Shown here piece after piece: positions 2,670 through 64,000 of a stretch of 64,000 nt of DNA. Under the pieces are notes generated by a model. The model searched no databases, had not been told where the DNA came from, and saw only the letters and a program-made list of their open reading frames with translations. The position numbers were made by a program, and so were the translations under genes. The DNA comes from a virus (lineage: Duplodnaviria > Heunggongvirae > Uroviricota > Caudoviricetes): the IMG/VR virus record IMGVR_UViG_3300028805_000044. One strand, 5' to 3'. Within the stretch, counting starts at the first letter, position 1; every line of letters starts with the position of its first letter.

Positions 2670-3062
2670 ATGGATGAAGATATGAAAGCAAACGAATTAA
2701 GTTGCAAAGACCTTATGGTTGGTGATTGGGTTAGGATTAAAATAACCCAACATAACACAACAGTAACTAATATAGATGCAAATAGTGTTTATACAGAAGC
2801 AGCATTTCCTATAAGATATGACGAAATAGAACCTATTTCTCTCACTCCAGAGATACTTGAAAAGAATGGATTTGAGTACTTTCATAAAAATTATTCTTCA
2901 CTAAGTTATGATCATCCATTTAAACTTAAAATGACAAATTGGCCAGATGAAAACGGGTTAGGTGGATTATGGACAATATCTAATATTATTGAAATCCGTT
3001 TTGTGCATCAACTCCAGCACGCTTTAAGACTTTGTGGAATTGAAAAAACTATTGAATTATGA
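2670..3062 (+). CDS. hypothetical protein
   Basis: 130-aa ORF in the tightly packed early region. Confidence 0.35.
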   Translation: MDEDMKANELSCKDLMVGDWVRIKITQHNTTVTNIDANSVYTEAAFPIRYDEIEPISLTPEILEKNGFEYFHKNYSSLSYDHPFKLKMTNWPDENGLGGLWTISNIIEIRFVHQLQHALRLCGIEKTIEL

Positions 3063-3313
3063 AAGCAAACGCACCAGAGAAGATTTATCTTTTTAAAAAT
3101 CCTATCACAGAAACACCTGACGATAGATGGTTGTCTAATAGAAGTGACGAGAACGACATCGAGTACACTCGCACTGATGCCTTTATTGAGAAAGCAGAGA
3201 AATATTTGGAAAGCCAATTTATTAAGGATGTTTCCGTTTTAGCTGCAGGCGCAGTTCACATAAACTTTTCAATAGCAATTAAAAATTTTGTAAACTATAT
3301 GAAGAGAGAGTAA
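3059..3313 (+). CDS. hypothetical protein, paralog of 3315..3635
   Basis: Shares the TDAFIEKA(E/C)..L motif with the following ORF, so this is a tandem duplication. Confidence 0.4.
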   Translation: MKANAPEKIYLFKNPITETPDDRWLSNRSDENDIEYTRTDAFIEKAEKYLESQFIKDVSVLAAGAVHINFSIAIKNFVNYMKRE

Positions 3314-4744: not shown

Positions 4745-4932
4745 ATTGGACAAAATCGTTTTGTATCCTTGTATGGATTATCTTAGTCATTCTTGGATCA
4801 GACTTAGCCTTTAGTTGGCTAAATTTGGCTAATACTGTAGCCAATATTGCTGGAGCATTCCTAGTATTATTTATAATTTTTATTTCAGTTAAAACAAAAG
4901 CATTTACTAATTTTAAATTTTGGAAAAAATGA
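4726..4932 (+). CDS. small membrane protein
   Basis: 68-aa ORF with two predicted TM segments. Confidence 0.35.
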   Translation: MLLSKMNWTKSFCILVWIILVILGSDLAFSWLNLANTVANIAGAFLVLFIIFISVKTKAFTNFKFWKK

Positions 4933-5502
4933 AAAAACTTTTAGGAATTTTGTTTGTTGTTATGCTTGCATTAGTAGGTATGACAAGTTGTGGTCTTGAG
5001 CGTGTGGACGCAGGTTGTGAAGGCATTGAAGTATCTCTGTATGGAGATGATCGAGGTGTTGGCGAAGTTAACTTGGTAACTGGCTGGGTAGTTTACAATC
5101 CCTGGACCAAGCAAATTTTTGAGTATCCAACTTACGTCCAAACCATTGATTACGAACCTTTTACCATCAATGCCAAGGATGGCCCTCTCTTTACCATTGA
5201 TCCTAATGTAAATATTAAGGTTGCTGATGGTAAAGCTCCCCAAGTATTTAAAAAGTACAGAAAGGATTTACAAGATGTAATAAATGGACCTGTGCTCAAA
5301 TATATTAAAGACGCTTGTCGTATTGAAATTAATAAGTTCACAACGGATGAAATTGTCTCTAACAGAGAAATGATTGAAAATGCTATTGAAAAGCGTTTGA
5401 AATTCAATCTTGCTAAAGAGGGCTTTGTTCTCGACAACTTTACTTCTGGTCTGAAATATCCTGAATCGATTGTCGAAGCAATTAATGCCAAGACCAAGGC
5501 TT
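4920..5502 (+). CDS. SPFH/band-7 (prohibitin/HflC-like) lipoprotein, exon 1; lipobox-type signal peptide
   Basis: N-terminus MEKMKKLLGILFVVMLALVGMTSC is followed by an SPFH core (VDAGCEGIEVSLYG...TIDPNVNIKVADG...ESIVEAINAKTKA). The SPFH fold stops abruptly at TAA 5502-5504. Boundary is ±1 nt. Confidence 0.7.
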
Positions 5503-6441
5503 AATATGTAGGGCCCCCTATGTAGTAATATATAGGGATAACTCCTCTAATTGCTGGAACCTCCATGTAAAATTAATTTTATATTTTTATTTTCATTCTC
5601 AACAATTATTTTTATTTTCATATATAGAAAATAAATAATAGCTATAGATAATGAAATTAATAAAAATTTAAATTTTAATTATTATGGAAAATCAGCAGCT
5701 AAAGACAAAAAATGCTCAAAAGTATTTTATCAAACCTGGATAGGTTTATGGTAATTTTAAAACTATTGAAGAAATAAAAATTCAAACTAGCAAGTGTGTA
5801 GAGACAAGGTGGAGATGTTTACATTTACCAACAGGACAAGAGAAACTAGAAAGAGCTTCATATCTTATAAAGTTTCCTACTCTTGAAGAAAAACAAGCAG
5901 AGCTTGATAAAATGGTAGAAGAAGATCGTCACCAACTTGGATTTCGTAATTATTTATTTAGAAATGCACAAAAAGGAGCTAAAGAAAGAAAACATGAATT
6001 TAACTTATCTTATGATGAATTTATAAGTATAATTAAAAAACCATGTTATTATTGCGGGGAAGCTCCAAGACCTGCAACTATGGATCAATTAAAAAAGAGG
6101 GGTAATACTCAAGAACCCACTTTTTATTATAATGGTATAGACAGAATAGATCCTAATGGTAATTATGATTTACATAATTGTGTACCTTGCTGTCCAGTAT
6201 GTAACTATATGAAACATACTTTAGCACAAAATGAATTTTATAAACATATTCTAAAAATAGTAGAGCATTTAAGTTTAAGTTCAACGACTATCTCGAAAGA
6301 GAGTACAGTACAAGCTAATGGTACTGGAAATGGGGAGGATCCAGAAATGGATCAAGATATAGTCTCATCTGCATGTATAAATAAAGATGCAGCGGTCTTA
6401 AATGACGGGGATGAGAGTTGCGTCTCATCTTGAAGATATTG
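5503..6441 (+). mobile_element. putative self-splicing (group I-like) intron carrying an HNH homing endonuclease, inserted in the SPFH gene
   Basis: A 0.94-kb interruption lies between the two halves of one SPFH protein. An in-frame stop sits right at the 5' junction. The upstream exon ends in U and the element ends in G. A possible P1 forms between exon GGCU and intron GGGCC at 5511-5515. Hairpins lie in the last 80 nt (ctgcat/atgcag and gatgaga/tctcatc). Confidence 0.55.
5912..6433 (+). CDS. HNH homing endonuclease (intron-encoded)
   Basis: Contains CYYCG ... GIDRIDPNGNYDLHNCVPCCPVCNYMKH, which is an HNH motif with a zinc-binding Cys pair. Confidence 0.75.
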   Translation: MVEEDRHQLGFRNYLFRNAQKGAKERKHEFNLSYDEFISIIKKPCYYCGEAPRPATMDQLKKRGNTQEPTFYYNGIDRIDPNGNYDLHNCVPCCPVCNYMKHTLAQNEFYKHILKIVEHLSLSSTTISKESTVQANGTGNGEDPEMDQDIVSSACINKDAAVLNDGDESCVSS

Positions 6442-6666
6442 GTACAGGAAGCTCAAAGAGTAGAAAACGAGTTAAAGATTGCTGAGGCTGAAGCACGTAA
6501 AAAGATTGTTGCAGCTGAAGCAGAAAAGCAAGCTAATGAACTTAGGACTCAAGCTTTAACTCCTGCTATTCTACAGCAAATGTGGATTGAGAAATGGGAT
6601 GGTACTTTGCCTCAGACTATGGCTGGAGGTGATTCTAAATTACTCTTAAACTTACCTTCTAAGTGA
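6442..6666 (+). CDS. SPFH/band-7 protein, exon 2 (C-terminal coiled-coil and KWDG region)
   Basis: VQEAQRVENELKIAEAEARKKIVAAEAEKQANELRTQALTPAILQQMWIEKWDGTLPQ is a typical prohibitin/HflC C-terminus. It joins exon 1 in frame as ...AINAKTKA|VQEAQR. Confidence 0.65.
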   Translation, partial: VQEAQRVENELKIAEAEARKKIVAAEAEKQANELRTQALTPAILQQMWIEKWDGTLPQTMAGGDSKLLLNLPSK

Positions 6667-15336: not shown

Positions 15337-15613
15337 ATGGCTGAACTAATCGCTATTGTTGGTGAATCTGGGTCTGGTAAGACCACATCTATTAGAAACT
15401 TAAATCCGAAAGAAACATTTATTATATCTACTACAGGTAAGAGACCAGGAATTAAGGGTGCTAAAAAGAAGTATCCTGATTTCAAGGTCAATAAGGAAAC
15501 AAAGGAGATGACAGGTAATTTCTATACTTCTTCTAACATCGACTCTATAAAGCAGATGATGAAGATAGTAAACTTGAAAATGCCAAACGTTAAAGTACTG
15601 ATTATTGATGATT
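15337..15613 (+). CDS. P-loop ATPase (Sak4/AAA_24-like), exon 1
   Basis: Walker A IVGESGSGKTT. The ORF ends at Walker B VLIIDD and is immediately followed by TAA. Exon 1 ends in U. Confidence 0.55.
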
Positions 15614-16698
15614 AACTTAAATTAACATTTAAAAGTTTGAATATATTTTCAAAAATTCGTAAGTATTAATATATTTGAGTAGTAACTTAAATATTTAATC
15701 TTATGAATTTAAAATATAATGAATCACAAATTATTGAGCTGTATAATCAAGGATTATCAGATAAAGAAATTTCTGAGATACTTGGTGTAACTGAGACAGC
15801 TTTTTCTTGTAAAAGAAGGAAAATGGGCTTAAAGGCTCATACTAAAGCAAAAAGAGAAGATTATATTCCAAATGAAAAAGAAATAGCTATTATAGTAGGA
15901 ACTCTGTTAGGAGATAGTACAATAAGATATGTACATGAAAAATGTAAATATCCAAACTTAACCTTTGTACATTCACCAAAACAGGAAGAATACTTTAACT
16001 ATTTGTCCGAAGAATTAAAAAACTTTAGGGCTTCATCTGGAAGATATGTAGACCATAATAAGTTAAATAAATATGGCTACAAACTTGTATATACTGGAAG
16101 AAACATGAAATGTTTGAAAACTATAAGAGATAGATTTTATTCAAATGGTAAGAAAATAATACCCCCATTTATCATAAGAAAATATTTTACAGAATTAAGT
16201 CTGTACTATATGTTTATGGATAATGGTAGTTATGATAAAACAGGTAATAGTTATATTATAAATACTCAATGTTTTACCATAGAAGAGCTTACTGAATTCT
16301 GTGATATTATGGAAGAAAAATTTGGACTTTCTTTTAATATAAAGAAAGATCATACCTTGTATTTAAAACATGAATGTAATTCTATTATGTATAATATCTT
16401 ATCTAAAAACAATAAATGTGATTCTATGACTTATAAATGTGGAAAGTCATCGTTAAACTCCGTTAAACAGGGAAACTCCTTAAAGGACAATCCTGTGCTA
16501 AACCCTCAAGAAATTGAGGAAAATGCCGAACGACTAGAAGTGATGCCTAACGAGAAAGACGAGGCTATAAGTTCTTCCACGAAAGCGGGGCACTGTTCAG
16601 AGTAAGGTCCGTGAGGATATAAAATGAATCAAAGATATAGTCTGACCAATGCAGTAATGTATTGATGTAGGAGATAAAGAACTCTTACGATAACAACG
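15614..16698 (+). mobile_element. putative group I-like intron carrying a LAGLIDADG homing endonuclease, inserted in the P-loop ATPase gene
   Basis: A 1.08-kb interruption exactly at the Walker B motif. The flanking exon ends in U and the element ends in G (16698). Exon 2 continues in frame as ...LIIDD-L-FQYLQAF. Confidence 0.5.
15703..16605 (+). CDS. double-motif LAGLIDADG homing endonuclease with N-terminal HTH
   Basis: Two LAGLIDADG-type motifs (IIVGTLLGDSTI and YYMFMDNGSY) plus an HTH (LSDKEISEILGVTETA). Confidence 0.7.
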   Translation: MNLKYNESQIIELYNQGLSDKEISEILGVTETAFSCKRRKMGLKAHTKAKREDYIPNEKEIAIIVGTLLGDSTIRYVHEKCKYPNLTFVHSPKQEEYFNYLSEELKNFRASSGRYVDHNKLNKYGYKLVYTGRNMKCLKTIRDRFYSNGKKIIPPFIIRKYFTELSLYYMFMDNGSYDKTGNSYIINTQCFTIEELTEFCDIMEEKFGLSFNIKKDHTLYLKHECNSIMYNILSKNNKCDSMTYKCGKSSLNSVKQGNSLKDNPVLNPQEIEENAERLEVMPNEKDEAISSSTKAGHCSE

Positions 16699-17123
16699 TG
16701 TTTCAGTATCTCCAGGCGTTCGAGAACATGAATCGTGTTGATGAGAAGGGATATAATAAGTTTACAGATATCGCTAAGCATGCATATGAGGCTTTGAGGA
16801 CTGGTATGGACATGCGTGACGATTTATTTGTAATAGTAATGACTCATAGTGAAAATACTGGAGATAATCTCAATCCTTACTGGAAAATCAAGACAATTGG
16901 TAAAATGTTAGATAGTGTTATTACACTTGAAGGATTATTTACCTATGTGTTCTTTACTCGTGTACTTAATGATGAATCTGACGGAGTAAAATATAAGTTC
17001 CTAACCAACTCAGATGGAACCTGTACAGCTAAATCCCCAATGGGACTATTTGAAGATTTACTTATAGACAATGACTTAGATTATGTTATTAAGAAAATCA
17101 CCGAATATAACGAAGGAGAATGA
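16699..17123 (+). CDS. P-loop ATPase, exon 2
   Basis: In-frame continuation after the insert (FQYLQAFENMNRVDEKGY...). The upstream in-frame stop is at 16692. Confidence 0.5.
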
Positions 17124-17707
17124 TTCAGCGATTTAAGGTGCTCTTTACTTATGAGCAAGACGATGAAACCGGAGAGGTGAAAGTAATTAATAGGGAGGTA
17201 GTCAACGGCGATCTTCCTAAAGCAAAGAAGACCAGCTCTACTAAGAAGAGCAAAGCAGATGAAAACCCAGAACCAGAACTTATTCTCGAAGATAACAAAT
17301 ACAGCCTCAACACTGCAGCTGTAGAGTTATTAGGTGTCGAAGCTGATGATAGAGTAGACATCAAGTTCGAGAAGAGGGATAAGGTAAGAGTTCCAGTTAT
17401 AGGTTGTAATACAGCTTTTGGAACACAGGGAGGTAATAGATTAACCAAGTCCAATACAGTAAGTTATAGAGGTAAGAATCATGACTTGCTTGAGGAGTAT
17501 GGAACTGTATTCTCATTTAAAGAAACAGATAAAGAAGGAATCTTCGAATTAGTAGGAGATAAACCTATTCCAGAACAGAAAGAAGATGAAAATGTCAAAA
17601 TTGTAGATGAAGAGGTAGAGGAAATCGGACGTCCAGAAGACCTAGTAGGTATTATGGAAGGAGATGCTACTGAAATAAATACAGATGATCTTGATTTCAA
17701 TTTCTAA
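17120..17707 (+). CDS. acidic protein with SSB-tail-like C-terminus (DDLDFNF)
   Basis: 195-aa highly acidic ORF sitting in the replication gene neighbourhood. Confidence 0.35.
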   Translation: MIQRFKVLFTYEQDDETGEVKVINREVVNGDLPKAKKTSSTKKSKADENPEPELILEDNKYSLNTAAVELLGVEADDRVDIKFEKRDKVRVPVIGCNTAFGTQGGNRLTKSNTVSYRGKNHDLLEEYGTVFSFKETDKEGIFELVGDKPIPEQKEDENVKIVDEEVEEIGRPEDLVGIMEGDATEINTDDLDFNF

Positions 17708-19554: not shown

Positions 19555-20091
19555 TTGAACACTTCGTGTAAAGCTATTTTTAAAGATGGCAGTACTAAAG
19601 AATTTGCTTCCATCGAGGAAGCATCAAAAGAAACAGGCATTACAGTTGCTGCAATTAAAATCAGATGCAATAAAGCTGGATGTGGAGGAAAAGAAAAAAT
19701 CTGTTTCGAATGGTTAGATGAACATACAAAACGTTCTTATCAAGCAAAAAAATCTAGAAGTAAAGGAGCTTCTTGGGAACGTGAAGTCATTAATAAGTTA
19801 AAAGAGATAGGATTTACTGGCTGTGTTACTTCTAGAGGAGAATCTAAAAAAGTAGATAATAATAAAATTGATATTATAGATACTGAAGGAAAGTTACCTA
19901 TTAATATTCAATGTAAACAATATCAAAATACTCCATCTTATTTTACTATTAGAGATGCATGCACTGATAAAAGCAAACCTTTTGCTGTATTTTGGAAGAA
20001 ATCTCCTGAAGGAGGAGAAAATAGTAAAGGCTCTATAGTAATGATAGATACAGAATATTTCCTAAAGCTTTTAGCTTTAACTTTAAAATGA
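19555..20091 (+). CDS. putative PD-(D/E)xK nuclease with N-terminal NUMOD1-like HTH
   Basis: HTH segment EFASIEEASKETGITVAAIKIRC, then GES..D..KIDIID..E...QCK. Non-ATG (TTG) start. Confidence 0.35.
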   Translation: MNTSCKAIFKDGSTKEFASIEEASKETGITVAAIKIRCNKAGCGGKEKICFEWLDEHTKRSYQAKKSRSKGASWEREVINKLKEIGFTGCVTSRGESKKVDNNKIDIIDTEGKLPINIQCKQYQNTPSYFTIRDACTDKSKPFAVFWKKSPEGGENSKGSIVMIDTEYFLKLLALTLK

Positions 20092-20586
20092 CCACATATA
20101 TATACGCTGTTTGTGATGATGCTGGCAATCATCTAAAGACTGTTAATGCTGTGTCTATGAATGCAGCTAAAGAAAAAATAATAGAAAGATTTAGAGATTT
20201 ACTAGAATTAGATGAAGAATTTTATAATTGGAATGACTTTATTGATTTTATGAAAAATCATGATATAGTCATATCTAAGTGTATACAAGACATAGAAGCT
20301 TTATGAAAATATATAAAGTAGTTAAAAGAGAGGAAAATCCTACCATTTCACTTAGTAAGGTGAGTATGGAAGATGGGTTCTTAATTGTTATATCCAATGG
20401 TGAAGCAATTGGAATAATTGTTCACGATGATTGTAAAGAACAATACATAATGATTACATACTTTAATGATAGCTTCGAAAGTGGAATTAATGCTGATTAT
20501 TATGATGAGAATCTTGAGAAACTAATAGAAGAAATCAGAAAGGATTATACAGAACCTGTTGAACTTAACTTTGTAAGAATCACACA

Positions 20587-53530: not shown

Positions 53531-53566
53531 GGGGAGTCCGGTTATCGGGCTCCCCTCTTTTTTTTT
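53531..53566. terminator. bidirectional (convergent) hairpin terminator between early plus block and late minus block
   Basis: GGGGAGTCCG-loop-CGGGCTCCCC followed by T9 on the plus strand. The minus strand has the same hairpin followed by ATTCTTTTTAT. Confidence 0.65.
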
Positions 53567-56500
53567 ACTACTGGGCTTTCTTCCAAGCAGCATATGTATC
53601 TTTACCAGCACGTGCAACAGCAAAATTGCCCATAAATGCATCAGATACAGACTTACGACCTGTTACAACTTTAAGTCCATCTTGCATAACTTTAAGATTT
53701 ACTTCATACATTGGAGAAGCAGTATTATCTCCAAGCCAATCTTTAAAATTTAGAGGACCTCTAAATGAATCGTAAGAACGTCCTCCAGCTTTATAAAGTA
53801 TTTCGGTTGCTAAGTTAGCGATTACTGGATTATCTTTCATTACTTTCTTATAATCCTTATAAGCAGGATCGAGAGCAAATTTAAATATACTAAACAATAG
53901 AAGAGTTACAAACATGTCACTAAGTAACTTAGCGAGACTAGCTCTAACGGTTGGGTTAGCTCTTATATAATCTTTCATTGCTTGTAAACCTCCATCCTTA
54001 GTAATATAGTATATGTCTCTTAATGTGTAAGCAATACCTTGTACAATAGTTGGAACATTATGATATAGAGGCATTCCAGTATCCATTGTAGTAATTCCTC
54101 CATCTTCATCCAAGAATAATGGATTACCAGCCTCGTCAGTCTGTTGTTCAACATTAGAACGATTGGCACTATACTTACCAGGTTTCATAAAATAATTATT
54201 CCAAATACCATTCATCCAAGTAGTATACATACCAAAGAACCACATGAGTGTAGTATGTTCTCCCATAGACTTAAGAGACTTATCGTATGCACCATATATA
54301 TTATCAGCTACTTCCTTTACAGCAAGTATTTCTTTATCAGAATATGGAGCAGGTAAGAAAGTTTCTGCAGTCTCTGGATTAAGATCAATCTATTGTTCAG
54401 GATGTTCAGCATTCCATTCTCTTGCTTTAGACATATAAAGAGCTTTAGCCTATTTATATTCAGTAGAGTCCTTTGGAGTTCCATCTACTAGAGCCTTAAA
54501 TCTCTTATCCTTCTTCCAGTTGTATACAAGAATATCATCCTAAATTTCCCAACCTTCCCAACATCCATCTTTCATACAGCGTGCTACAAAAAGAGTCATT
54601 CTGTTGAGGAAATCAGGTCTACGAAGAGTAGCATATGCCCAGTTTCTATAATTGGTTATACCTCCTCTTCCTACTTTAAGAGATTCTGTACTAGCGAGGT
54701 CTATGTTAGATAGTCTGTAACGAGTTTGTAACTTACTAAGTAAACTAATATTCATAGTATTAGTCATACTGTGAGTAACTACATAAGCATAAGCCTCACT
54801 AAGAGTCTTAGCATCTATATCAGTATTTAATTTAGTTACAGTTCTCATAAAGTTTTCTTCAAATCCCTGGAATACATCACGGAAGAATGAAATCATATTA
54901 CCTCCAAGATTCATAAGAGTTACTTGACTGCGCACTCCAGCAAGAGCACCTGTAAGAACACGTCCAGTCTCACTCTTGATAGTAGTATTAAATACATTAA
55001 CTTTTAAGAAATCTCTAATATATTTTATTTCTCTTTCCATTATTTCTGAATTACCAGATTCTTCTCCCATAAGAGTAAGTTGGAAAAGAAGAGAACGTGT
55101 ACCAATCATAAAGTCTTTAAGTTTGGTGCATTCTACCTATTTAGATAGATATTCAACAAGAATATTTTCGATATTAGTTTCAAAGAAATCTACTCCTTGA
55201 GCATCTATAAATTCTTGTCTAGTTCCTGCTCTGTCCATCTCATCTCCTATATCAAACATATTATGAACATATCCAAGTTTTTCCTTGTCAGCTTCAAGAC
55301 CTTGTTTTATAAGGCTTCTTTCTTGTTCTGTAAGTTTTTCAACCTGTTCATCATAGTATTGTTCTGGATTCTTTATTACATTCCAAACTCTCCTAGCTCT
55401 ACCTTTCCAAGTACTTGCATCTAGATTCTACATAACACGTGTAGAATTAGAAGCTCTCATAAGAGGACACCATAAATATTTAAATCCACCAGCACTTTCG
55501 GCAATAAATTTAGGTATAGCTGGACTATCATAACTTCCAAAGCCGTGCACATCAGTACCTTTATTTCTAATTAAATAGAATTGATAAAGTGCCTGTTTTA
55601 AGAACTTAGCCTCTTCAGGTCTAAGACTACCATCGGTCCAAGGATTCTTAAAGCGCATAGTTTTATTGTTCTATTCATCTCTTTCAAACATATTATCAAA
55701 GAGAGATGCTTCGTTACCGAGAGTAGCATTTTGAGCAAGTCCATAACCTTTAGCCTTTAAGAATTCCATGATGAATCCTCTCATATTCTTAGCATGATAC
55801 TGTTCTACTTCAGTAGCAATACTATTGTATGTAGCAGCTAAGTTATCAGTTACTATACGAATATTCTAATTAGGGATGTGGTTTGTAGTAGACATATGTC
55901 TATATATATCAGTAAGTTCCATCTCATAGTTAAGACGTTCTCCTGTATAATGATGATAGGCATCAGATATTACTCTATAAAGTCTACATAATTTCTATTC
56001 ATTACCATGTCCCATTTGTCCGTTAGCATATCTAGCTATTTCGTCAAATTTCTTAGTTGGAAGTTTTAGATATAAACTATTAAGAAGTTCTTTAAGAATC
56101 ACCGTCTTTTTATAATCTTCATCACTTCCTACAAGATCTGCTAAAGCTTGAAATTTATCTGGAGAATATTCCATCATCTGTCCTTCTCCTTTAGCCTATG
56201 TAAGTAAAGCAAACTCATATAGTACAGCGTCAAGAGGATCGACAAATTGTTCTTTCTTAAGATTTCTAAAGTTATTAGGGAATTCTATATCAGATTCTTT
56301 AGATACAGTATCGATTATCTCTGGAAGATAATTCTTTGTAATGTCACCAATAGCATAGTTTCTTGAGTTACCATTATGACTAAGTACTTTGACTCTTCCA
56401 AGTTTTATGTTTTCCATATCCATAGTTGGAAGAACCTAGTTAAGAAGGATGATAGCACGAATTACTTCTGCATTACCATAATCGCCTCTCAATGTGTTTG

Positions 56501-58223
56501 TTTGTACATCAGTCTTAAATGCACCTAGAAGAGTATGTCTTCCTTTACCAAATGGTATTTCAGCATTACAATCAAAAGAACTAAGGGATATAATATCAAG
56601 TTGTCCTGTTTCCTTGTTCTCCATTAAAATGACATTGTAATCAAGAAGTTCATCGCGTAACTTCCATCTATAAGTCATAGAGCGTTTTCCTGTTCTAGGA
56701 TCTGCAGGTCCCCATTCTATATCATTAAAATAAACATCAAGCATAGTTTTAATAAATCCTCTAGAACTAGATAATCCTTTTAGCTTATCTATAATATCAG
56801 ACTCTGGAACATACACTCCATGTTCTGTTACTTGATTCATTTTACGTATAGCTTCTTTAAGAGTATGTACTGTCTATAAAGTATCATCCTCTATTTCATT
56901 AAGATTATCAACTACTATATCAAGGATATCCTAATTTATATTTTTATTTTTATTAGATTTAGGTCTGTAAGATTTTCCTCCTATAATAACCTCCCATCTA
57001 CCTTTTTCATCATTTACCTCTCTAATAACAAGAGGTTCTGCTTCACCAGCTTCTGGTGCATGTTTAATAAGTTCAATAGCAGAACGGTGAATTCCTTCAC
57101 TTCTCATATTAAGAATTGGGAAGGTATTTTGAAATAATTCATCAGCTTTATCAAAGGTTTCTATAGATACTTTAGGAATTGATACATTACTTGGAATAAA
57201 ATGTCTAGCATGTTTATCGTACTGTCCAAGCATATAATCACCAGTCCTATTTACAGAGATGTTTTGTGGAGCTCCTATTGTTACTTTTTCTAAGTCTCCA
57301 TCTTCGCCGTAAGTCATATGAACAGGAACTATATTAAGTTCTATGTTTTTAACTGGAATTCCATTATAAGCAAGCATCTATTTAAGGAAAGCCATACCAT
57401 AATTATATTTCTTCCACTTATCCTTAGACCAATTATTCATGGTCTATTGAGAAGCTTTAAAATTATAAATATGTAATGTTCCAGATGAATCTACTGATAA
57501 ATAGTCTACGTGACCAACAAGTTCTTTTCCAAGAGCCTCTATTTTAGCTTTAAGCCCTACGTTGCCTATAATAACTGGACCAACTTGTGTGTGATAAATA
57601 TACTGATTTACAAAGTTTTCCATTTGACTCTTTATACCTTCTAACATTGATGTCTTTCCTTCAAATGGAGTCCCATCAACTACTTCAGATACAGCTCTTA
57701 CATAATCAGAAGATTTAGTTTTTGTAGAAATAACTCCAAAACCGTCTATTATTTTGTGGAAAACTACAGAATCCTTCTTAAATTGGTCCATATTTTCAAG
57801 ATGTGTATCTACTTCTTTAGTAGCTGCTTCTTCTGTATATCCTTTATCATGTACAAGACTATCAATTTCTCTCTTTCTAAATTCTTCTTTGTTATAAGGA
57901 CGAACAAGAGGAACTCCATCTATAAGGCAAGCTGGATCCTCAATAAATTCTTGATAAGAAAGAATAGAACCGTCTCCTCCAAGTTCATCATCATATGTTG
58001 AGGCTACTCTAGAAGTAGTCATTATATAGTCATGCTTTACTTCTCCAATTCTAGTTATTATAGAATCTTTATAAGGATCTTTAGAATATACTATATCACT
58101 TATTTTAGATATAGTTTTTGTATCTAAAACTTTTGCGAACTACTCGTCTACGTACTACAATAGTTCTATAAAGGATATATCTTTCTATCCTGTGCTTAGT
58201 ACATCATAAGTACATTCTTTCAT
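53565..58223 (-). CDS. giant late protein A (about 1552 codons), TAG-recoded; virion/ejected-protein candidate
   Basis: One frame (coordinate mod 3 = 0) runs from ATG 58221-58223 to TAA 53565-53567. It is interrupted only by in-frame TAG at 17 positions (58185, 58155, 58140, 57444, 56931, 56436, 56196, 55995, 55866, 55671, 55428, 55137, 54540, 53568 and others in 54267-54539). The start overlaps the gene B stop (TAATG). Confidence 0.7.
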
Positions 58224-60736
58224 TAGTCACACTTTTCTATAATGTCTTTACCTATTTGCTCGCTTATCCAGTTAGCCTTCTATCTTTGAACTTGTATATT
58301 TTTATCTTTAAGAAAACTTATATTATCACTAACGTGTTTAGCTATGTTTGAATTGAATCTCTTCCAAATACCATCAAGAGAACCATCGAAGTCACGTATT
58401 GATTTACCTCTATCTTTTCTATCAAAGATAGTATCCACCATTGCTTTTATTTTGTCATTAGTTGCAAATAAAGAACTTAGATCATAAGGAAGGTTATCTT
58501 CCATAAATTCTCCATATAAATCAGCAACTACTTCTTCTGCTAAGTCCATTCTACTTACATTTGGAAAGTTTTTCATTTTCTTAGCTAAAGCTCTCTATCC
58601 TCTTTCAGTACTGAGAATTTTGTCTATAAGTTCTATGTAGCTCTCCCTAAGTTCTGGATCAGCTTTCATTGCTCCTAAGAACAAGTGTGCATATTCATGA
58701 AATGCATCTGAACCTTTAGCTATAGCCCTATTTATATAGATTTCTCCATTACGAATAAAGGCTCTTACAAGGTTCAAGTCTTCAATTCCCATTTCTGTAA
58801 GTTCTTCTTCTCCTACAATATTTACTGGAACTCCGAATTTTTCTTTCATTTCTACAGCTATACTATTCAATAGCTATATAACTGGAGTTCTCTTTTGAGC
58901 TCTTTTTGTAGTTACAGCAGTTTCATCTGTAGGAATATAGTGTATACGATAACGTCCTTCGTCAACTTTAAATGCTTTACTTACATAATAGAATGAAGGT
59001 TTCTTTGTATCTATGTTAGTAAGTATTTCATTTATTTTCTTTTCATTGGTTCTTGGATATGTAGTTTGTCCTTCTTCTGTAATATTGAGTTCTCTATTTA
59101 TTTCACTTATAAAAATAACAGCTTTTTCTGCTGTATTTATTTTCTGTTTTATAGATTCTTTGGTAGCAGTAGTTATATCTGTCCAAGTATCTATATAGTT
59201 ATAGAAATCTTGAAGAGTTTTGTCCAACAACAAATACTCTTCATCAAACATACTAGTAGCTCTTACATCTAAAGGTATATCTAACATAGAAAATACAGTA
59301 CCTTCAGGTATAAATCTTGGGCTAGCAAAAGTTCTACCTCCTCTTTCCTTTATATCATTACCAATAAAACTTTCTTTAAGATCAATAAAACCATCTTTTC
59401 TGAGATTTCTTGTTAAATAATGATTATCAATCCATTCTTGAGCTTCAATAAGACTAGCAAATCTTATAGCTTGTAAATTTTCATTTATAAAGTAAGGAGT
59501 AACAAAATAATAAGTTTGAGTTTTATCTCCAACTTCTTTTGTTTGACTATAAATATGGTATCCATTTCTAGTTTCTTCCTTTGTAAATGAGGCTACAGTA
59601 TCGTAAGAAAATCCATATAAAGAATGTAAAGTTGGGAATTTATTTTCTAATATAAGACTCTTGCTATTCATACTTACGGGTTTTAGAGATAAAGGATTTT
59701 CATTAGGTTCTAAGAAAGTATTAATAGCATTAAATAGAGTAGTCATTCCCCATTGATCGGAATCATCATCGACATGTCTTGCAAGATAGGCATCTCTTTC
59801 TCTTGTTAGAGCTTCTAAGAATTTCTTTTCTTCGTCATTAAGTCCAGTAATAGCAGATATATGTTCTATTACTTGACCAGCTTTCTTAGAAAATAATTCC
59901 TTAAGAACTTTCTAAGCTGTAAATATATGCGGATAGCGAACTTGTAATTGTTTAGCAAACTCACTCAAATCAAGAGTAAAATCTCCATTTGTACGTCCCT
60001 TTAGACGTTGATTAAACTCATTGAGTATAGGATTTTTATATTGTTTCTTAGATGGAACATCCCTAATAATATTTCCAACTAAATTAAGTATTACATAGGC
60101 AGATCTTCCATTTACTACAGTTTTAGAACTTCTTATTTTACTTTTATCATTTAAAAATGATAACATTAATTCTTCAGGACTCATTTTTTCTTTATCAGCA
60201 ATCTCTTGTAAGTCCTTAGCAAGATCTTCTTCTAATCCTTTTAACCATTCTCCATTTAATACTTTATCTCTAATCTTTAAGTAAGAAGCAAGTTGTACGA
60301 GAGAATCTTTGTCTCCTCTCACTACAAATATTTCTCTTCCACTTTTATCTAGAACTCTTCCGGATACCGGAAATTTAGAATTAAGATCGAGATTATCAAG
60401 TAATAATATAGGAACATTTGTATCTGGAAATTCAATTTCTGGATAAGTGTCCTATATATATTTAGCATTTACATTTGGAACAAGTCCTTCCTTTCCACTA
60501 ATCTTTGAATATGTAACAGCATAAGAAACAGCACTATTATCTTTTAAGTTCTACATAATATCGGACTTAATGCTATTCCATTGATTTTTATGTTTGGCTA
60601 TTATTGCTGCTAATCTTTGTTGGAAGACATCTGCGGGGAGGGAATGTTCTCCCTCCTATCCGTAGATTTCTTCTTCAGGGACTGTAATCCTATGTTCATA
60701 GTCCCCGAACTTAAAAGTTATAGTACAATTCTTCAT
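58223..60736 (-). CDS. large late protein B (about 837 codons), TAG-recoded, contains HExxH zincin motif
   Basis: One frame (mod 3 = 2) runs from ATG 60734-60736 to TAA 58223-58225, with in-frame TAG at 60656, 60551, 60452, 59912, 58874, 58595, 58280. FHEYAHLF lies in the 58595-58870 segment. Start ATG overlaps the gene C stop (ATGA). Confidence 0.65.
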
Positions 60737-63700
60737 GCACAAATTACGTCTAATAATAATTTACTTGATCTCATTAGATTAGCTATTGCTTCTATAGGAG
60801 AATCATCTAATAAGTTCTACGTCTTAACTAGGATGTCTGAATAAGGTTTACCAAGTACAAAGTAAGCACGTTGTAGATAGAATCTATGAAGCATTTGTTC
60901 AACACTTTCTCCAGTTACTGGTGGAAGTATATCATCCATAGGCTTATAGTTAAATCCATCACGTTTATAATACTTAGGTACTTTATCCTCATACATTATA
61001 ACTACTGGATCTGTTTGTCCCTCAAGACTGGTTACTATTCTAGCTTGAGAAATAAATAAGTCCATAGCAGTAAAGTTCATCATATCGTCAATACTGCCAT
61101 TCTTGTAGTCATATTCTCCTACATATTTCAAATATCTATTTATTAAGTTATCGCCTTTACTATCAAATTCCTTTACGAAATTCTCAAATATCTTTGTTAG
61201 ACGATCAGAACCATACTAGTTCTTATTAACTATCAAATTATATAGAGCGAACCAATCAGCTAAAGAATATTCTCCAATCTTAAAGTTTTGTAATTGGTTA
61301 AGTCCTTTACTAAACTTAGATAATTGTATTCTTGTATATGCTGAATCCGAAGAGATATTAACATTGGTCTTCCAAACAGGAACATCTCTATCATTACCTC
61401 TCATAAGAGACATAATAAATGGGTTGTAACGGATAGTTTCTTTGTCTTGGTCAGACCACTCTCCATAAGTTCCTGCCTTTAATCCAGGAATAACTACATT
61501 TTCAAAGTAATATTTAAATGAAGCAATTCCTTCTTCAGTACTTAAATTAATAAGTCCATCTTTAACTATTGAAATAGTTCTATTACTGTTAATAACAGAA
61601 CCGCTAACAGGGAATCTAAAATTACCATCTACAACAAATTGCTGCATCATTAGATTAGAAGCAAATCCTAGTATTCTAGAATAATACTTGTCATCTATAT
61701 ACATTGTAGGACATTCTTTATTTATTTTTTCAAGACAAGCATTTAATATACGGCTCTTAACAGCAAATTGGTTTACTGTACATTCACCTCCAAGTAATTT
61801 GAACATACTCTTAAAGTGTGGTAATGTAGTAGCTATAGCAAATATATTAAGGCTCACCTTTATCTAGTTGTAATATTCAGCAACTCTCCTTTGATATTCT
61901 TCATCCTATAACCATCTAACTGGATCAAATCTTCCTCCCATTATATCAGCATAACGTTCAGGATTCTTTATTTCATTATCAGGTATAAGATTACCTTTAT
62001 TATCTAAGACTCCTACTTCTTTTTCTCTTCCAGTAATAATCTTCTTAATGTTACTTAGATAACCTACCAAGTCCTCTGCCTTACCTGGAAGACCTTGGTT
62101 AATACTAAGAAGACGTCCGAAGGTACTGAACTCATCAGCTCCAGCTTGTACAGTCTTAAATTCAGCTATATCAGCAAGTGCTTCTTGTACTTGTACAGCA
62201 GTCAAATTAGATGGAACTATACTTTTTATAAGTGCTAATTTCTTTCTAGAACCTGGAACTTCTCCATTTTCATCTTCGAAATGGTCAGCATCCTTATTAA
62301 TTGCATAATTCTTCAAGTAATTTTCTATCTCCGTTATAGCTTCATCGACTCTTAAATCTTGTCCTAAGAATATATTAGGATCAGAAAGAGCATCTATCCA
62401 AGAAACTGCATTACTAGTCATAAACTTAACTATATCGTTAATATCATATCCCATAGTCATTAGGAATAGATAGCACTTAGCTAACTTACTACCAGCATTA
62501 ATCTTAGCAAGAATAAGTTCTTTAGCATTATCAGTAGCTGCAGAAATCATCTGGCTAATAATAATATCAACGGGAATCTTAGATTTTAACTTTCCATTCT
62601 ATATAAGTTGTACAAGGTTAGGATCTACTATACCTTCTGTATTTATATCAGGGAGTATTGAAGTAGATACTTGTCTCATCATTGGTTTACCATTAGTATC
62701 TTTAATACTTCTACCAGCAATACGGCTTGTAGAGAAATTAAATCTTGCATAATCCAAATCAGAGAAAGGAGTAGGAATTACTTCTCCATTTTCAACTCTG
62801 TAATCAAGTCCTAATTTAGCATTTTTATATGTATCATTCAAGTAGAACATCCACATAAATGCTCCTTTCTGACCTGTAGCTGAAATAGCAATAACATTCT
62901 TACCAGTCATATTCTAATACTGCATAGTATATACAGAAAGTGGATTCATAAGAGTTATTTCCAATGATTCAGCTCCTTTAGGAGAGTCATCTGCTGCATC
63001 TCTAAGGTCGTTCATATCTACAGGAACGTAAGAATCAGCAGCATTTCTAACATGCTATATAGTATTTTGAATATGCACAGAAATAAAGTTTCTAAGAGCT
63101 TGTGCTTTTATTTCTGCAGGAAGTTTAGTTGCATTATGTTGGTTAAGAGTCTTTATTATTTCTTCTGAAGCTCCTTTAACTTTAGTACCATCTTCTAATT
63201 TATTAAAAATACTAACATATGCGAGTATTCTATTTGTCTTATATTGACTTATTAATTTAGAATCTGAAATACCCTATTTAAGTGCAGCATCAGCCTCTGT
63301 GATTATTTTAGCTTCTTCAGAAACATCAATTCCATCTTGTGCTTCCTCTATAACTACTCCATTCTTTGGAAGAGGTAAATATTCAGAAGCCTTTATAGTT
63401 TCTAGATCATTATAGTCAAAGAGACTAGACCAACCTATATATTGTCCATTATCATCAAATGCAAGTCCCATTATATAAGCCTTATCAATATCATAGTCAG
63501 AACCTTGAAGCCAGGTCTACCAATGGCTTACATAGGCTAAGTTACTTCCTTCAGCAGTATAAGCAACCTGTCTCATATTCATAAATGACTATAATGTCTA
63601 AGCAGGAATACGAGAAGCTGTATAATACTGAGACCTTAAGAATGAATAATATTTCTTATAGTTTAGACCATTCTTAGCAGCTACAGTTCTGTCATCTATT

Positions 63701-64000
63701 ATTTTAGCAATAGATCCAGGCTCTTTAGCCTTTATAAAGAATATAGCTCCAGATTCAGCATCATACTATAAGTCAGGACGTATAAAATTCTTAGTATTAG
63801 GTATTTTACTAACTTGTTCAGATATTGATTCTAAATACTTAGAAAGCTATGGATTATAACTAAATCCTTCTTCATCAGCTTTTGCATATTTTTCAAGTAT
63901 TCTCTGAACTTTACCTAGATTAGAAAGTCTTAACTGTTGATTATTTATTGTTAATAATTCATAAGAATCAGCTTCATACATTTCCTTTATAAGTCCCTAT
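60733..64000 (-). CDS. giant late protein C (more than 1089 codons, 5' end beyond window), TAG-recoded
   Basis: One frame (mod 3 = 1) ends at TGA 60733-60735. In-frame TAG at 60817, 61216, 61906, 62599, 62914, 63055, 63274 and upstream. No TAA/TGA in the translated stretches. Confidence 0.65.

Follow-up and report, generated by a model that had tools for sequence, protein, structure and literature searches.

The locus described here raises the question of whether a phage gene interrupted by 940 nucleotides (nt) of inserted DNA is broken or is restored at the RNA level. The gene encodes a protein of the SPFH/Band_7 family and lies on the plus strand of a 64,000-nt stretch of DNA, hereafter the window, taken from the IMG/VR virus record IMGVR_UViG_3300028805_000044. 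By its best DNA and protein matches, this gut phage is crAss-like (Crassvirales), with a GC content of 33%. Our analysis demonstrated that the insert is a td-like group I intron with a complete covarying core, P1-P9.2, including the P3/P7 pseudoknot. Very probably, this td-like intron carries a functional-looking homing endonuclease of HNH type that depends on TAG being read as sense. The coordinates of the features are collected in Table 1.

Host Gene and Boundaries of the Insert

In the standard code, exon 1 is an open reading frame (ORF) running from 4920 (TTG) or 4929 (ATG) to 5504, where it is closed by the TAA at 5502-5504. Exon 1 alone matched Pfam Band_7 with an E-value of 3.8e-17 (63.3 bits), the profile being reached only to position 161 of 176. 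The protein joined across the insert scored 72.7 bits against a gathering score of 23.6 for the same family (PF01145), covered positions 20-176 of the 176, and also matched PHROG 200 (E 2.7e-63). Its N-terminus (MKKLL...MTSC) contains a lipobox, MKKLLGILFVVMLALVGMTSC, read by eye, in which Ser-Cys is invariant in two homologs, and the product is a putative lipoprotein with a lipobox Cys.

The exact limits of the insert were given by uninterrupted homologs. Those of the crAss-like phages cr85_1 and PhiCrAssBcn2 (62-64% identity) align without gaps over ...NAKTKA/VQEAQRVE... of the joined protein, and the closest IMG/VR relatives (L005-L007) have SPFH proteins that are 85-88% identical and uninterrupted, that is, empty sites. 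At the DNA level, a spliced 120-mer aligned without gaps to six intron-less genes, and L006 is identical to the spliced sequence around the junction (AAGACCAAGGCT followed directly by GTACA). A shift of either boundary by one base destroyed the junction match, and no alternative pair of boundaries reproduced it. The insert thus comprises positions 5502..6441 and no others (940 nt), since only these boundaries restore the sequence of the homologs. It lies between the codons A(GCU) and V(GUA), with U5501 preceding it and G6441 as its last base; the junction expected after splicing is ...CCAAGGCU joined to GUACAGGAAG..., and the empty target site in L006 is AAGACCAAGGCTGTACAAGACGC.

An earlier sequence-only reading of this DNA had placed the split at the same positions, 5501/5502 and 6441/6442, and had proposed intron-less homologs as the means of locating the insertion site; the gapless protein and DNA junctions bear out both, and its ORF coordinates (4920..5504, 5912..6433 in the standard code, and 6442..6666) are also correct. 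Its remark that an SPFH protein is unusual in a phage does not agree with the 806 phage records that encode SPFH homologs or with the PHROG match given above. SPFH genes are common in phages.

DNA was recovered for seven copies of the element, namely those in the window, L200, L196, L203, L204, L205 and L201. Exon identity across the intron-bearing copies was 0.73-0.83, 0.87-0.94 and 0.50-0.57 at codon positions 1, 2 and 3, respectively, and both exons are under purifying selection across these copies.

Group I Intron Identity and Core Structure

The last ~165 nt of the intron resembled introns in many phages in a blastn search; the thymidylate synthase (td) intron of Dickeya phage JA29, which has a GIY-YIG ORF, is ~75% identical, and the alignment ends exactly at 6441. 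A pattern search of IMG/VR from the 3' region found at least 120 members of the family. For the 3' domain, 35 diverse sequences were aligned with MAFFT, and the helices derived from the window were examined in them. Pairing amounted to 97.7% in P7.1, 98.6% in P7.2, 89.7% in P8 and 97.1% in P9.1, with many double-sided changes; the observed pairing was reached in 0 of 500 shuffles, and slid registers gave 30-47%. P9.2 was 43% paired in the MAFFT columns with a signal at +1, which reflects a shift of 1 nt in how the loop subtypes were aligned.

The 5' domain of the window is homologous to that of compact ORF-less relatives (CUCUAAUUGCUGGAA...AAUCAGCAGCUAAAG). For the full core, 27 relatives were aligned as mini-introns consisting of the 5' core plus the 3' core, and the core was projected from the window. 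In this alignment, 97.4% of the cells were paired, compared with 72% in shuffles (0 of 500 reached the observed value) and 34-45% in slid registers. Double-sided changes were present at 26 of the 37 core pairs, including five of the six in P3, and the helices showing them were P3, P4, P5, P6, P7.1 and P8. All helices were confirmed base by base in window coordinates, every family-invariant nucleotide is kept in the window, and the U-G pair in P1 and the terminal omega-G are present there as in the sister copies. The sister introns carry compensatory changes in P2, P7.1 and P7.2. The td-type homology, the covarying core and the Rfam-positive compact relatives described next support the group I identity, which had been called probable from the sequence alone. 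We rejected a group II intron and an intein as alternatives, because the ORF is out of frame with the exons and lacks Hint and reverse transcriptase domains.

Concerning Rfam, the whole window gave no match at the gathering threshold. Its score against Intron_gpI (RF00028) was 20.1 bits (threshold 50), with a weak match at 6240-6386 that covers the diagnostic J8/7-P7 sequence (AAGAUAUAGUC). Seven compact ORF-less relatives scored 71-104 bits, above the threshold, and all ORF-bearing copies, the window included, fell below it. Because the compact relatives pass and the ORF-bearing copies fail, the low score of the window probably reflects its two large insertions, in P5 and P6a, the core itself being present. 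The search with Infernal group I models suggested in the sequence-only reading thus gave a sub-threshold score for the window and scores above the threshold for its compact relatives. The insertion in P5 folds as one hairpin (-24.7 kcal/mol, z -4.2, matched by 0 of 200 shuffles). An internal promoter in this AT-rich extension was also considered and discarded, as promoter-like sites show no enrichment (4 versus 11 expected).

The sub-threshold Rfam score, the short P1 and the large insertions in P5 and P6a would also be expected of a decayed, splicing-dead intron that had left SPFH a pseudogene or only a 191-aa N-terminal fragment. We regard this as very unlikely, however, as all core helices pair in the window with the invariant nucleotides intact, the sister-intron changes are compensatory and not random, and purifying selection persists on both exons in the intron-bearing copies. 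Moreover, td-type introns commonly have ORF insertions in P6a.

There is next to no probability, in our estimation, that a free-standing endonuclease gene splits SPFH without any splicing, with the halves translated separately and reassembled or with exon 2 silent, an alternative named in the sequence-only reading. Translation of an 82-aa product could begin at an in-frame TTG (6418), but exon 2 lacks an ATG, and the sequence upstream of it is the P9.2 hairpin. Such an arrangement would also leave unexplained the complete covarying group I core around the ORF, the U and G at the boundaries, and the fact that seven diverged genes carry the insertion at one and the same codon boundary.

The Endonuclease Reading Frame

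Within the intron, the frame above ATG 5912 is open for 56 codons back to the TAG at 5741, and ATG 5684 precedes this TAG. No in-frame ATG, GTG or TTG was found between 5744 and 5911. A database search with the TAG-bridged 249-aa query yielded 461 homologs, many of them 216-240 aa long with an M(E/D)NQQ... start and ~90% query coverage, and their alignments include the part encoded upstream of ATG 5912. Identity by codon position follows the order 2>1>3 in the endonuclease, codons 21-76 included, and the ORF is evidently under purifying selection. The sequence-only reading had described a free-standing HNH ORF at 5912..6433. That ORF does end 8 nt before the 3' junction, but it is intron-borne, and the true ORF is 5684..6433 with an in-frame TAG. 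Similarly, the 407 nt of non-coding RNA reported upstream of it exist under the standard code only; because the ORF starts at 5684 when TAG is sense, the truly non-coding 5' part is 182 nt.

The exact translation of 5744-6430 was modelled with AlphaFold2. Residues 1-175 were modelled confidently, the predicted local distance difference test score (pLDDT) of each 10-residue block being 91-98 up to residue 150; 156 residues scored 90 or above. The beta domain upstream of ATG 5912 (codons 21-76) had a pLDDT of 93-96, and the last ~48 residues, which are the translation of P7-P9.2, fell below ~50. The model confidently predicts a PacI-like HNH fold, and both fold and sequence family place the enzyme with the HNH type. 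In place of the canonical first His of the HNH motif, the enzyme has D-R (GIDRID), which is invariant in an alignment of 17 sequences and invariant or nearly so in one of 60; it is therefore filed as PacI-like and not as a canonical HNH enzyme. PacI is itself an atypical HNH enzyme. A sequence search of the PDB with the endonuclease returned noise only.

The ORF makes up ~80% of the intron length. It begins in the P5 3' strand, where AUGGA pairs with UCCAU, overlaps P5', P4', P6 and P6a, crosses the P6a loop, in which it is nested, and then overlaps P6a'-P9.2, and ends 8 nt before the 3' splice site. Two conserved peptides, both predicted to be disordered, correspond to parts of the core: MENQQ... 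is the translation of P4'/P6, and ...SSTTI..ST.QANG.GNGE is that of P7-P3'. Because the ORF reads through the core, the conservation of these peptide ends is really RNA conservation, imposed by the ribozyme. The complete C-terminal string SSTTI-x3-ST-x-QANG-x-GNGE...DIVS (6283-6433) is the translation of P7, P7.1, P7.2, P3', J8/7 and P7'.

Table 1. Position of the intron, its RNA elements, its ORF and the host exons in the window.
Feature	Position	Strand	Observation
Group I intron, td-like, IA2-type architecture	5502..6441	+	940 nt; UAA 5502-5504 in frame with exon 1; omega-G 6441
P1	5498-5501 / 5512-5515	+	U5501-G5512 wobble at the 5' splice site; base-by-base check
P2 hairpin	5516-5522 / 5531-5537	+	compensatory changes in sister introns L196 and L200
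P10 guide	5507-5510 with exon 2 6443-6446	+	base-by-base check
P3 5' strand	5542-5547, pairs with 6332-6337	+	98.8% paired in 27 relatives, double-sided changes
J3/4 UAA between P3 and P4 5' strands	within 5542..5557	+	
P4 5' strand	5551-5557, pairs with 5692-5698	+	99.5% paired in 27 relatives, double-sided changes
P5	5562-5566 / 5684-5688	+	94.8% paired; closing helix holds endonuclease AUG 5684-5686
P5 extension	5567-5683	+	117-nt AT-rich hairpin; inverted repeat I2
P4 3' strand / P6 5' strand	5692-5698 / 5699-5700	+	P6 100% paired, CG/UA/GC exchanges
P6a 5' strands	5703-5706, 5710-5717	+	
P6a' / P6'	6263-6270, 6273-6276 / 6278-6279	+	followed by J6/7 UUCAAC
P7	6286-6290 / 6360-6364	+	invariant in alignment
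P7.1	6291-6302	+	96-98% paired
P7.2	6306-6326	+	97-99% paired
P3'	6332-6337	+	P3/P7 pseudoknot
P8	6338-6353	+	90-92% paired; followed by J8/7 AAGAUA
P9	6369-6374 / 6387-6392	+	base-by-base check
P9.1	6395-6397 / 6404-6406	+	97% paired, covariation
P9.2	6409-6416 / 6423-6430	+	perfect pairing in the window
3' tail ...GAAGAUAUUG	ends at omega-G 6441	+	family-wide 3' end GAAnAUAnnG in alignment
Homing endonuclease ORF	5684..6433	+	249 codons, predicted PacI-like HNH fold; TAG 5741-5743 (codon 20); TGA 6431-6433
SPFH/Band_7 gene (putative lipoprotein), exon 1	4929..5501	+	ATG 4929, last base U5501; TTG 4920 upstream also in frame
SPFH gene, exon 2	6442..6666	+	VQEAQRVENEL...; stop TGA 6664-6666

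TAG Recoding in the Endonuclease and in the Genome

On the minus strand at 53565-64000, three frames of 1553, 845 and 1088 codons contain 18, 7 and 14 TAGs, respectively, and zero TAA or TGA. Since these long frames hold TAG but neither TAA nor TGA, the phage reads TAG as sense in its late genes, a usage published for crAss-like phages (PMC7886860; bioRxiv 10.1101/2021.08.26.457843). Translated with TAG as glutamine (Gln), the late frames gave no PHROG match and almost no tblastn match in the phage collection, so their reality rests on the stop-codon statistic together with the literature.

The same codon occurs in frame in most copies of the endonuclease: at codon 20 in the window, 20 and 34 in L200, 12, 20 and 180 in L196, 12 and 65 in L203, and 72 in L204, with none in L205 and L201. 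Each of these six positions in five copies is aligned with Gln in at least one homolog, and the terminators are always TAA or TGA. Because the TAG codons align with Gln, the endonuclease needs amber suppression. The host gene does not. The signs of recoding of TAG to Gln (code 15) were found in both the endonuclease copies and the late block.

Of the plus-strand genes with 100 codons or more, the endonuclease alone contains an internal TAG; PolA, NrdD, a DnaB-like helicase and a primase-like gene are among the genes on this strand. Among the 70 ORFs of at least 100 codons in the plus block (1-53500), 32 end in TAA, 32 in TGA and 6 in TAG, which is depleted as a terminator; read-through past those six would extend the ORFs by no more than 5-22 codons. 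A second intron in the window, described below, has a LAGLIDADG ORF without TAG, so TAG in an intron ORF is not general within this genome.

It is improbable, in our view, that TAG 5741 represents an ordinary nonsense mutation in a degenerating endonuclease that yields a 173-aa product from ATG 5912 or none, in an intron that may still splice. Homing endonucleases frequently decay once fixed, the window copy has a single TAG and its window no suppressor tRNA, and gene callers gave a 176-aa truncated form in L200. Decay of this kind, however, does not agree with five copies having TAG at six Gln-aligned codons and never TAA or TGA. Codons 21-76, which lie beyond the TAG, show the 2>1>3 pattern of coding conservation and form the confidently predicted beta domain, 5744-5911 offers no in-frame ATG, GTG or TTG, and the late block of the genome clearly reads TAG as sense.

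Distribution and Probable Mobility

All seven copies (7/7) lie behind a Band_7 exon 1, at the homologous codon boundary. Their host SPFH genes range from ~81% identical to highly divergent, and closer relatives are intron-less; the SPFH gene of L201 has only ~51% DNA identity to that of the window in each exon. The endonuclease is confined to the element, is absent from the empty alleles (L005-L007), and goes with one target site. Between the window and L200/L196, third-position identity was 0.71 in the endonuclease (loop part only), compared with 0.57 or 0.50 in the exons. This higher identity in the endonuclease than in the exons suggests that the host genes diverged earlier than the intron copies, a pattern that is expected for homing and is indirect evidence of it.

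In a divergent, standard-code relative (L201, 1428-2471; L202, 765-1808), the endonuclease ORF runs in frame through the 3' splice site into exon 2, and the unspliced RNA would encode a 347-aa fusion of HNH and the SPFH C-terminus. In the crAss phage cr50_1 (L004, NC_055868.1; 1327-3078), a nucleotide-binding or P-loop protein is annotated as 1327-1803 plus 2833-3078 around an HNH gene at 1937-2731. The HNH product is 44% identical to that of the window over 125 residues, including the core-encoded SSTTI...ANG tail, and the locus probably represents a further intron of this family, not annotated as such, in another host gene.

Other Loci in the Window

A second group I intron was observed within 15337-17125. 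It interrupts a P-loop ATPase gene (AAA_22/AAA_24, ATP_43b-like), whose exon 1 ends with ...VLIIDD at U15612. This intron (15613-16700, 1088 nt) has an in-frame TAA as its first codon, ends at G16700, contains AAGATATAGTC at 16632-16642, and carries a LAGLIDADG_2 ORF at 15703-16605. Exon 2 starts with FQYLQAF at 16701, and the 232-aa protein obtained by joining the exons can be aligned to uninterrupted homologs over a single stretch. Rfam did not detect the second intron in a permissive scan of 14-21.5 kb. The DnaB-like helicase gene was considered as its host and rejected, as that gene is complete and the intron sits in the next one. Further downstream, an ORF at 19555-20088 has weak I-HmuI NUMOD-like and PDDEXK matches, with a near-match to the J8/7-P7 motif (TGATATAGTC) at 20261-20270; the region 19555-20270 could be a free-standing homing-endonuclease-like gene or a chance resemblance.

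Discussion

Several points weigh against the reading of the insert as a td-like group I intron with a TAG-dependent homing endonuclease. The window's own Rfam score is sub-threshold (20.1 versus 50 bits), P1 has only 4 bp (GGCU/GGCC including the wobble), and P10 has 4 bp and is offset by one base. The Pfam HNH match of the endonuclease is also sub-threshold, and the first His of the motif is replaced. The codon-20 TAG shared by the window, L200 and L196 may reflect common ancestry only; neither the 64-kb window nor the sister fragments yielded a suppressor tRNA, and the window contains no tRNA of any kind. Finally, self-splicing, cleavage and the delayed timing of the enzyme are steps that we infer from sequence.

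Based on the anatomy of the locus, the following course of events may be proposed. The SPFH gene would be transcribed with the plus-strand, non-recoded block, and ribosomes translating exon 1 would halt at UAA 5502-5504, the first intron codon. The RNA would fold into P1-P9.2, and guanosine would attack after U5501, paired with G5512; the freed exon 1 would then attack after omega-G 6441, ligating GCU to GUA and giving a 265-aa SPFH lipoprotein. The endonuclease gene (5684..6433) would be carried in the intron with its start codon paired in P5 and TAG as its codon 20, and synthesis of full-length enzyme would require TAG to be decoded as Gln, as in the minus-strand late block, presumably by a suppressor tRNA encoded outside the window. 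The enzyme may cut intron-less SPFH alleles of co-infecting relatives near AAGGCT/GTACAG, and repair would copy the intron into them, which is homing.

Because the ORF fills ~80% of the intron, starts in P5, and keeps its frame through P7, P3', P8 and P9, the RNA is expected either to be translated or to fold as a ribozyme, but not both at once. The amber codon close to the endonuclease start might be a regulatory device, with the code switch as a developmental timer for the selfish element, an idea that we put forward tentatively and consider rather unlikely. Early in infection, ribosomes that begin at AUG 5684 would be released at TAG 5741, short of the 3' core, and splicing and SPFH synthesis would proceed. 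Once a suppressor tRNA of the phage is present, read-through would yield the endonuclease and the ribosomes may unfold the core, shifting the locus from host-gene expression to intron propagation.

The intron is comparable with the T4 td intron with I-TevI (IA2), which has the same core, including P7.1/P7.2 and P9.1/P9.2, and an ORF in the P6a loop. As in T4, an in-frame UAA is the first intron codon, and the J8/7-P7 sequence GAUAUAGUC is shared. On the other hand, the host gene is SPFH here and thymidylate synthase in T4, and the enzyme is PacI-like HNH here and GIY-YIG in T4. The window ORF exceeds the loop, starting in P5' and running through P6a'-P9.2, and the window intron has an extra 117-nt P5 hairpin. 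In T4, expression of the td endonuclease is delayed; it is gated there by a late promoter and a ribosome-binding-site hairpin, whereas in the window it is apparently gated by the recoded TAG. Concerning PacI (PDB 3LDY/3M7K), it is 17-19% identical to the window enzyme and is a restriction enzyme that is not intron-encoded. The intron-encoded window protein further differs from PacI by an additional beta domain at its N-terminus and by a disordered tail translated from the ribozyme core.

Group I introns with LAGLIDADG or HNH-type ORFs in conserved genes are described for crAss-like phages of the Delta/Zeta groups in the available text of Yutin et al. 2021 (PMC7886860), together with stop-codon recoding in the same genomes, intron ORFs included. 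These introns belong to the same phage order as ours, and the P-loop ATPase hosting the second intron of the window is a typical host listed there. In that text, the introns are identified by protein domains, without RNA structure analysis, and SPFH is not mentioned. A literature search combining group I intron, phage and SPFH returned nothing relevant. For TGA-recoded Agate phages, Borges et al. reported an early-gene group I intron whose endonuclease has a recoded stop, and proposed that the recoded stop delays the endonuclease until late (bioRxiv 10.1101/2021.08.26.457843). In both cases, a standard-code early gene hosts an intron whose endonuclease carries a recoded stop; the window differs in clade, in recoding TAG to Gln instead of TGA to Trp, and, as far as stated, in host gene. 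Among crAss-like phages in that report, only lysis, tail and one unknown family were preferentially recoded. Earlier publications already cover the occurrence of group I introns in crAss-like phages, early-gene intron endonucleases with recoded stops, and the idea of delay.

For annotation, these data mean that the SPFH gene is intact once spliced, and not truncated, and that gene callers using the standard code wrongly shorten the endonuclease to a 173-aa fragment. The element leaves the current understanding unchanged and is a clean further example, not a new kind. With its defined splice sites, its defined empty target and its natural TAG variants at six codons, it offers a clean test case for two published ideas, that group I introns are abundant in crAss-like phages and that recoded stops delay a homing endonuclease. 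The near-total overlap of the ORF with the ribozyme core also makes it a useful example of dual RNA and protein coding.

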